The notes under the pieces: generated by a model
Told to the model about the DNA's origin: nothing
The model's database searches: none
What the model saw: the letters and a program-made list of their open reading frames with translations, nothing else
Origin: a virus
Length of the DNA stretch: 64,000 nt
Direction: 5' to 3' (one strand)
IMG/VR virus record: IMGVR_UViG_3300030098_004824
Span: 13,557 to 77,556 of that record
Translations under genes and position numbers: made by a program
Shown here: positions 2,476 to 2,886 of the stretch, piece by piece
How the letters are laid out: every line of letters starts with the position of its first letter
Numbering within the stretch: the stretch's first letter is position 1

Positions 2476-2612
2476 GAAGGTATTATTAACAATCAGAGAA
2501 GGTATATTAGGTATAGTGTGTAATAACCAAATACAGAGAGTTTTCCACAGATATTAACACTAACTGTGGAAAACTTAGTGTTTTTAGTGTTAAATAGCGT
2601 TTTAAATGCCAT

Positions 2613-2620
2613 TATAAATA
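2613..2620 (+). promoter_or_regulatory. T4-type late promoter consensus inside the DnaA-box region
   Basis: TATAAATA with no adjacent ORF; could be chance in AT-rich DNA. Confidence 0.3.
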
Positions 2621-2782
2621 TACATCTGTTTTGTAAAGGTTTTCCACAATGTTGTTAATAACTGTGTGTAATATGTGGAATAAGTGTTAATAAGGGGGTT
2701 TATATTGTGGATTAATTGTTGATAAGTAAGGTGATAATTAATGTCTCTAAATGTCATTATTTCTTGTGATCTTAGCGAGCGT

Positions 2783-2812
2783 ATTATAACACGAACGCCC
2801 GAAATATGTCAA
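2783..2812 (-). promoter_or_regulatory. leftward sigma70-type promoter
   Basis: Minus strand TTGACA (2812-2807)-N18-TATAAT (2788-2783) with extended -10 TG. Confidence 0.7.
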
Positions 2813-2886
2813 GGATTTATGATATTTTCTGTCATAAGTCTGTCAGGGTTTTTCCACATTTTTCCGTTATAATATGCACAGAGTTC

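Follow-up and report, generated by a model that had tools for sequence, protein, structure and literature searches.

T4-like cyanophages are among the most abundant viruses of the ocean, and to our knowledge no replication origin has been mapped in any of them. T4, the model of the group, needs no host initiator to begin replication; sites for the host initiator DnaA are present in P1 oriR and in ColE1-type plasmids. In cyanobacteria, replication competence is tied to light and energy supply. At the T4 origins oriF and oriG a pre-late promoter is followed by an AT-rich downstream element, and the annealed transcript primes the leading strand (PMC3016281). Host DnaA sites are already known in another phage replicon, that of lambda (PMC3985674). 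Here we analysed a 64,000-nucleotide stretch of viral DNA (the window: positions 13,557 to 77,556 of IMG/VR record IMGVR_UViG_3300030098_004824; coordinates below count from its first letter) in which a non-coding gap of 469 bp, 2476-2944, holds a cluster of DnaA boxes within a promoter cassette. No paper that connects DnaA boxes with cyanophages or with other T4-like phages was found, and this is the first case that we could find of a lytic T4-like phage with putative host initiator sites, even if they serve mere promoter control or act as a sink. The region is a probable docking place for the host initiator, perhaps at the start of phage replication, and not a copy of a bacterial origin.

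Four perfect DnaA boxes cluster in one non-coding gap

A preliminary description of the window had reported four perfect copies of the DnaA box TTTTCCACA in non-coding DNA, two of them forming a 12-bp inverted repeat. We found all four at the positions and on the strands given, and the inverted repeat is present as described. These are the only copies in the 64-kb window, and the whole 77,556-bp record also has four, so the cluster holds every TTTTCCACA of the record. Together with three weaker boxes they occupy 320 bp. The sites of the array are as follows.

2541-2549, plus strand: DnaA box 1, perfect TTTTCCACA, left arm of the inverted pair
2565-2573, minus strand: DnaA box 2, perfect TTTTCCACA, right arm of the inverted pair, 24 bp from box 1 start to start
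2539-2575, no strand: inverted repeat of boxes 1 and 2, with 12-bp arms AGTTTTCCACAG (2539-2550) and CTGTGGAAAACT (2564-2575)
2640-2648, plus strand: DnaA box 3, perfect TTTTCCACA, overlapping a weak leftward -35-like TGGAAA that is paired with TATATT (2646-2617)
2674-2725, minus strand: three weaker boxes in a single orientation, TATTCCACA at 2674, TAATCCACA at 2706 and TTATCAACA at 2717, spaced by 32 and 11 bp
2850-2858, plus strand: DnaA box 4, perfect TTTTCCACA, between the divergent promoters P_L and P_R

Dinucleotide-preserving shuffles of the window gave 1.38 copies of TTTTCCACA per 64 kb, or about 0.007 per 320 bp, which agrees with the earlier estimate of well below 0.01 perfect copies. 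The Poisson chance of at least four copies is about 1e-10 for the given span and about 2e-8 over all spans of the window. One-mismatch variants of TTTTCCACA are not enriched across the window (28 found, 33.8 expected). This indicates that the signal is a local cluster and not a bias of composition.

The weaker copies had been listed as one-mismatch boxes, which is only partly accurate. TATTCCACA (2674, minus strand) is one mismatch from TTTTCCACA, while TAATCCACA (2706, minus strand) and TTATCAACA (2717, minus strand) are one mismatch from the general, or Escherichia coli, consensus TTATCCACA/TTWTNCACA and two from TTTTCCACA; ATATGCACA (2872, plus strand) is a poor match with three mismatches from TTTTCCACA. 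The way in which the weaker copies depart from a perfect box follows TTWTNCACA, the known DnaA consensus. All three weaker boxes fall within a tandem repeat that comprises two 32-nt units (2653-2716) and the beginning of a third.

The sites resemble host DnaA boxes in sequence, flanks and spacing

The 9-mer TTTTCCACA is the consensus of the DnaA boxes in cyanobacterial oriC regions (PMC4674748), and it also counts among the good boxes of E. coli, as the mioC/R5 type. Directly upstream of dnaN in one Cyanobacteriia genome we found four copies of TTTTCCACA and three of TTATCCACA, and other cyanobacterial genomes have seven to eight perfect boxes within 135-210 bp. The earlier label of a cyanobacterial-type box therefore stands as far as the published consensus goes, while the specificity it implied does not: box pairs, direct ones among them, occur in Clostridia, Saccharibacteria, Verrucomicrobia, Actinobacteria and other phyla, and with the E. 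coli mioC-type box as well we rejected TTTTCCACA as specific to cyanobacteria. It is the best box for the host group of the phage.

We then compared the bases around 253 boxes in phages with those around 53 boxes in cyanobacterial clusters. The base after the box is G in 56% and A in 36% of the phage contexts, against 68% and 28% in the cyanobacterial ones, and both shun C and T there. Before the box both prefer G and avoid A, and at -2 both prefer A or G. The shared preference can be written (A)(G)TTTTCCACA(G/A).

Boxes were found in both orientations, which indicates a site on duplex DNA and not an RNA motif. Boxes in the same orientation are spaced, start to start, by 11-12, 20-22 (mode 21), 31-34, 42 and 53 bp, and inverted pairs by 13-14, 23-25 and 33-35 bp. 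Such helical-turn spacing is the signature expected of proteins that touch on one face of the helix. E. coli DnaA in vivo binds mainly paired boxes, and the phased spacing fits this mode of binding (PMC11317965). Taken together, the phasing and the host-like flanks point to the same reader protein, DnaA, as the likely one, and we consider that DnaA probably binds these sites.

A gene-less consensus promoter points through the array into a conserved AT-rich block

The gap also holds two divergent promoters, each of which matches the sigma-70 consensus at 12 of 12 positions. Both are packed within 300 bp together with one T4-late-promoter-like TATAAATA.

2783-2812, minus strand: P_L, leftward sigma-70 promoter TTGACA-18-TATAAT with TG, -35 at 2812-2807 and -10 at 2788-2783, predicted start near 2776
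2761-2782, minus strand: first bases of the predicted P_L transcript, containing CTAAGATCACAAG, with GATC; conserved (identity 0.76)
2574-2639, no strand: AT-rich block between the box groups, 76% AT, conserved, holding TATAAATA at 2613-2620 on the plus strand
2887-2915, plus strand: P_R, rightward sigma-70 promoter TTGACA-17-TATAAT, which serves the 57-aa gene at 2945-3118 and is kept in relatives

P_L points against all neighbouring genes and there is no gene downstream of it. Its predicted transcript would cross the three weak boxes, box 3 and the AT-rich block, which lies 137-202 nt into the transcript, and reach the inverted pair last. Box 3 lies about 20 bp downstream of TATAAATA, and box 4 precedes the predicted starts of both divergent promoters, that of P_L by about 78 bp and that of P_R by about 68 bp.

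P_L was found with a perfect TTGACA in 21 of 29 relatives drawn without regard to the motif (see below), and its predicted start keeps a constant place, -165 to -171 relative to the ATG of the next gene. Across relatives the first part of the predicted RNA includes a conserved (C/T)(T/A)AGATCACAAG. The GATC conserved in these first bases is a Dam-type site, and cyanophage S-PM2 is annotated with a Dam methylase.

An AT-rich tract at 2574-2635 had been pointed out previously. It is modestly AT-rich, 76% against 66% for the window, and its predicted stability is unexceptional: even at its weakest 60 bp the gap reaches only z = 1.7, a degree of instability that about 3.5% of window positions surpass.

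The leftward RNA (2525-2776, minus strand) did not fold significantly as a structured RNA (z = -1.7), and a permissive Rfam scan of 1500-4500 returned no known RNA family. RNA runs were searched as Logan contigs, which are pieces that carry no strand or end information. They gave short pieces of 88-95% similarity, mostly over the flanking genes, and one weak, unstranded oligo-dT RNA contig that spans 2620-2725; all of this speaks neither for nor against transcription.

The cluster is kept at the equivalent place in many cyanomyoviruses

We sampled 80 loci that carry a homologue of the 255-aa gene (4211-4978), a choice blind to the motif that avoids ascertainment bias. In the zone upstream we counted 52 boxes in 113 kb, compared with 4 in 522 kb elsewhere, an enrichment of 60-fold. 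Upstream DNA was sufficient in 34 of these loci; 15 of the 34 contain one box or more, and 10 contain two or more. A de novo count of k-mers in the 620 bp before the homologue of the 57-aa gene returned TTTTCCACA as the top 9-mer, with 30 copies observed for 0.52 expected, in 13 of 29 loci.

When IMG/VR was scanned for the inverted pair, at least 120 contigs matched, and about 58 of the first 120 listed are cyanomyoviruses. Among the matches listed, the pair lies upstream of the baseplate block wherever that block was on the locus, and some cyanomyovirus contigs have seven to eight perfect boxes in 500 bp. The cassette is also present in cultured phages. At the equivalent place Syn9 has a 24-bp inverted pair at 52565/52589 that matches the pair of the window, S-PM2 has three boxes (19231-19264), S-SM2 has two perfect boxes and one near-perfect box, and P-TIM68 has a box pair. 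Many cyanomyoviruses keep the cluster in the syntenic gap. In T4 itself we found 23 scattered matches to TTWTNCACA and no cluster.

Within the clade, the gap was aligned across 11 relatives. Box 1 is identical in all 11 (identity 1.00), compared with 0.46 for the whole gap. Boxes 2 and 3 have identities of 0.80 and 0.79, with box 3 kept in most relatives, and the core of the AT-rich block, TATAAATATA, has an identity of 0.84. Both arms of the inverted pair are kept while the 15-bp spacer between them varies (0.46); even against a neighbour with 96% identity in the adjacent 255-aa protein, five of the 15 spacer positions are changed. The position of box 4 is not conserved (0.26), and several relatives have a box in the same zone between the promoters. 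Other relatives have perfect boxes at the place, and in the orientation, of the weaker boxes of the window. In L006, a related single-cell virus contig, four perfect boxes stand in the equivalent gap although its flanks have diverged. From these alignments box 1 and its companions read as conserved footprints under selection.

The AT-rich block is widely kept in relatives, and boxes sit between P_L and the block or flank it. Some loci that are free of boxes have other short repeats in that stretch.

Several observations were made beside these. Five loci (L020, L031, L014, L071 and L015) have two to four separate box pairs or clusters over 0.3-3 kb, which indicates that the module can be multiplied within one phage genome. 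Some box-rich viral contigs carry no baseplate genes (L081, L075, L101 and others); other cyanophage types may have such arrays. A different non-coding stretch is found in L148, L149, L150 and L201 (about 100-420 bp upstream of the homologue of the 57-aa gene) and also in L147. It has four copies, about 70-75 bp apart, of a unit of about 27 bp (TCGTGATTA followed by GATTCGTATA), with no DnaA boxes and no P_L, and may be another iteron or promoter array. In S-PM2, to the right of the box cassette (L339:2440-2620; about 19440-19620 of the record), there are dense tandem repeats of the aaatctca/agatttcttaagattta type. The S-PM2 record NC_006820.1 also has ten annotated tRNA features at 17400-19350, of which tRNA-Asn and tRNA-Leu lie over the three DnaA boxes; ARAGORN found no tRNA in the 7-kb stretch examined (L339), and the tRNA coordinates of NC_006820.1 look misplaced.

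The array lacks the unwinding features of a bacterial origin

We compared the phage boxes with the origin of a presumed high-light Prochlorococcus (G147, so assigned by its class, its size of 1.7 Mb and its 29% GC) as a positive control. Upstream of its dnaN we found a run of (TAG)4, that is of DnaA-trios, with imperfect boxes and very AT-rich DNA. Near the phage boxes at least three tandem trios were found in 2 of 253 contexts, with no 3-nt periodicity, and the AT-rich tract is not outstandingly unstable (as given above). The helicase loader gp59 is annotated in Syn9, P-HM2 and P-SSM4. With no trio array, no outstanding AT tract and a loader annotated in the phage family, a bacterial melt-and-load mechanism is unlikely at this cassette. 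The cluster had been called oriC-like, and on these grounds, and with the 9-mer occurring in many phyla, the term does not fit.

In the cyanobacterial genomes we also observed that G147 and two others that are small and AT-rich (G134 and G053) have in common an inverted pair of perfect boxes whose starts are 44 bp apart. The copy in G147 (L328, G147:C1:1423956-1424008) is flanked by an Hsp70-like gene and a DUF2811 gene and is not near dnaN. This pair may be a conserved host DnaA site outside the origin.

Genomic setting of the cassette

The gap lies between two small genes on the plus strand.

2119-2475, plus strand: upstream flanking gene, 118 aa, DUF7326/phrog_1352, function unknown
2945-3118, plus strand: downstream flanking gene, 57 aa, phrog_12516, function unknown, a constant neighbour of the cassette

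That the box stretch is non-coding was upheld: an open reading frame (ORF) of 51 aa on the minus strand inside the gap has no family match, and the indels among relatives are not multiples of three. A coding role of the gap was rejected on both counts.

The cassette closes a series of small early-type genes and precedes a gp25 homologue by 2.6 kb, and homologues of the baseplate proteins gp25, gp6 and gp7 lie just downstream of it. This supports the earlier assignment to the T4-like phages. Kyanoviridae, along with viruses recovered from single marine cells, make up the nearest records. After the 57-aa gene the window has only small ORFs over 1.1 kb (3119-4210), and the box gap and this stretch together make 2476-4210 an unusually gene-poor 1.7 kb.

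A proposed origin primed by a transcript and gated by host DnaA

Our data suggest how these elements might work together. Host DnaA would dock cooperatively on the box array, on one face of the helix. P_L, by its sequence a strong early promoter with no gene of its own, would transcribe through the array into the conserved AT-rich block, and its transcript would prime replication as at a T4 origin of the oriF/oriG type. DnaA would gate this origin, either by making the P_L transcript stall or end within or next to the AT-rich block or by bending and opening the DNA there, and the firing of the origin would thereby be tied to the DnaA state of the host. The whole chain, a cyanophage counterpart of T4 oriF/oriG gated by host DnaA, is put forward tentatively; we rate it as possible, with a chance that falls somewhat short of even. 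As a place, the cassette is the best available candidate for the unmapped origin of the cyanomyoviruses.

One feature recalls a T4-type origin by sequence: a consensus promoter leads into the putative origin DNA and is kept in most of the relatives sampled. T4-type origins have an AT-rich element within about 100 bp of the promoter; the conserved block here lies 137-202 nt into the predicted transcript, is only 76% AT and is not unusually unstable. A further feature is directional. Of 21 boxes that relatives carry on the transcribed side, 18 point the same way, although these sequences are related and not phylogenetically independent. In the favoured orientation the AT-rich block lies 5' of TGTGGAAAA, as do the AT-rich DNA and the trios in the host origin that we examined.

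Several points weigh against this proposal. About half of the relatives have no boxes, and among named phages P-SSM2, P-SSM4, P-HM2, S-RSM4 and SynMITS9220M01 have no clustered perfect boxes at the equivalent place. Where boxes are present their number, position and orientation differ between clades, and the orientation bias is counted on related, non-independent sequences. The AT-rich block is not unusually easy to melt (z = 1.7), and with TATAAATA inside it the block may simply be promoter DNA. The T4 origins need no host initiator, and later replication of the T4 type is driven by recombination (PMC3016281). SynMITS9220M01 visibly keeps P_L and the AT-rich block with no box cluster, and because of this, and of the box-free half of the relatives, DnaA cannot be essential to the cassette. 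Since so many relatives do without them, the boxes appear to be an accessory input to a conserved cassette and not its core, with P_L as its constant part.

An extension of the proposal is that cooperative binding of DnaA(-ATP) would gate a phage origin of the R-loop type, that phage DNA synthesis would start only in hosts that are competent to replicate, and that the array would be a swappable input that lineages have gained, lost or replaced by other repeats. We consider this somewhat unlikely as it stands. If DnaA does gate replication or early transcription, there would be a direct link from the cell cycle, light and energy state of the host to the course of infection, which could help explain why cyanophage DNA synthesis depends on the condition of the host. 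The cassette, about 350 bp long and present in the cultured phages Syn9, S-PM2, S-SM2 and P-TIM68, gives a precise place to look.

Alternative explanations

The main rival is that the array serves transcription control only, with DnaA as a roadblock or regulator of P_L, of the late-type rightward TATAAATA and of P_R, so that early or late expression close to where the structural module begins would follow the DnaA state of the host with no role in replication. E. coli DnaA is a known repressor, activator and transcription roadblock (PMC11317965), and DnaA footprints lie downstream of lambda pO (PMC3985674). The packing of two consensus promoters and TATAAATA within 300 bp argues for such a role, as do the overlap of box 3 with a weak leftward -35 about 20 bp past TATAAATA and the place of box 4 some 70-80 bp upstream of both divergent starts. 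In relatives the boxes lie in or beside the transcribed stretch, where the P_L transcript would reach them after 43-365 nt; 18 of 21 point one way (non-independent counts), and the boxes are dispensable in half of the relatives, as a regulatory input may be. The distances from box to promoter vary widely between clades, however, which is a poor fit with precise control, and a strong conserved promoter that fires into a gene-free stretch is left unexplained. The two views are not exclusive, as gating an origin transcript is transcription control too; taken alone we judge the regulatory one unlikely, though a serious contender. A true bacterial-type origin, where DnaA would melt an unwinding element and the host helicase would be loaded as at oriC, has in its favour a box cluster beside AT-rich DNA and, in relatives, the orientation of the boxes to the AT-rich block, which is that of the host origin. 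It is very unlikely. The trios that the host control shows as (TAG)4 were found in only 2 of 253 phage contexts, the AT tract is not especially unstable, most boxes are two turns apart and not abutting, and the phage family has its own helicase and loader.

Should the reader be another protein, of the phage or of the host, the identity to DnaA boxes would be a coincidence or a competition device. Some relatives fill the slot with unrelated repeats, which implies that it accepts other binding motifs, and T4 oriE has iterons whose reader is unknown (PMC3016281). This is improbable given the exact 9-bp match to the host consensus with the same flank preferences at three further positions, the decay of the weaker copies along TTWTNCACA, and the occurrence of the motif in phages of different genera; we also found no DnaA-type DNA-binding domain (Bac_DnaA_C) in the 77.5-kb record, itself only about 36% complete. 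The numbers of sites bear on a datA-like sponge, in which the array would soak up or inactivate host DnaA as phage copies rise and so halt host initiation. Each phage genome brings four perfect boxes, while three presumed Prochlorococcus genomes of 1.6-1.7 Mb have 17-25 in total, no more than a reversed-motif control, and the origin of G147 has only imperfect boxes; by this arithmetic tens of phage copies would outnumber the perfect sites of the host. A pure sink would need none of the phasing, the orientation bias or the constant place in one promoter cassette, half of the relatives have no boxes, and blocking host initiation would presumably gain little in a fast lytic infection. We regard a sponge as decidedly improbable. 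Finally, the inverted pair might be no more than a terminator hairpin that belongs to the upstream gene, with the other copies due to chance. In RNA the pair would form a 13-bp stem of -20.5 kcal/mol (z = -4.6), 66 nt past the stop codon and followed by a T-rich stretch. A simple terminator scan found none, however. The stem is AT-rich and long-looped where an intrinsic terminator has a GC-rich stem, and relatives do not keep the T-run. One and the same 9-mer always makes up the arms, at spacings that range over 5-30 bp; it also recurs singly and as direct repeats, and chance copies are excluded by the shuffles, the 60-fold enrichment and the k-mer ranking. As an explanation of the whole array a terminator is barely credible. 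With a negative scan and an unconserved T-run we rejected it as the sole explanation of the inverted pair, and since the trailing T-run is not kept, a terminator role is at most secondary.

Comparison with known systems

The cyanobacterial oriC upstream of dnaN (PMC4674748) has the 9-mer and the flank preferences in common with the phage array, and in both the boxes are of mixed orientation and include inverted pairs spaced by about two turns. Unlike it, the phage array has no DnaA-trios, no dnaN or dnaA as a neighbour and fewer boxes, and it lies inside a promoter cassette. The inverted pairs also differ in detail, being mostly 23-24 bp start to start in phages and mostly 21-22 bp in the cyanobacterial genomes sampled. 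E. coli datA resembles the array in having some 4-5 good boxes clustered outside an origin, but it needs IHF and acts on the cycle of the cell itself, whereas the phage array is tied to a promoter and varies among relatives. The box of the E. coli asnC-mioC region and other transcripts controlled by DnaA (PMC11317965) are alike in that boxes lie in a transcribed stretch with one orientation favoured, and the mioC box is of the TTTTCCACA type. Those cases are single or double boxes in cellular genes, in contrast to a phased multi-box phage array before an AT-rich block.

The T4 origins oriF (uvsY) and oriG (gene 34) (Kreuzer and Brister 2010, PMC3016281) are likewise non-coding units of about 100-300 bp made of a promoter and an AT-rich element, in a T4-type phage with its own replisome and gp59 loader; the predicted P_L transcript here has no coding job. 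They use a MotA-dependent middle promoter with no host initiator and no DnaA-box cluster, whereas the candidate origin described here has a plain sigma-70 consensus promoter, a host DnaA array and an AT-rich block that is not unusually unstable. T4 oriF stands beside gene 25, with uvsY just downstream, and our cassette 2.6 kb upstream of the gp25 homologue, which is a weak analogy only. In lambda, host DnaA boxes lie downstream of pO (oop), the promoter of a small non-coding RNA, with pR beside ori-lambda, and replication depends on nearby transcription that is modulated by DnaA (PMC3985674 and references therein). As a temperate phage, however, lambda differs: it supplies its own initiator O with iterons, uses the host helicase and has only two box-like sites. 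Here, four to eight phased consensus boxes are found in a lytic T4-like phage with no known initiator.

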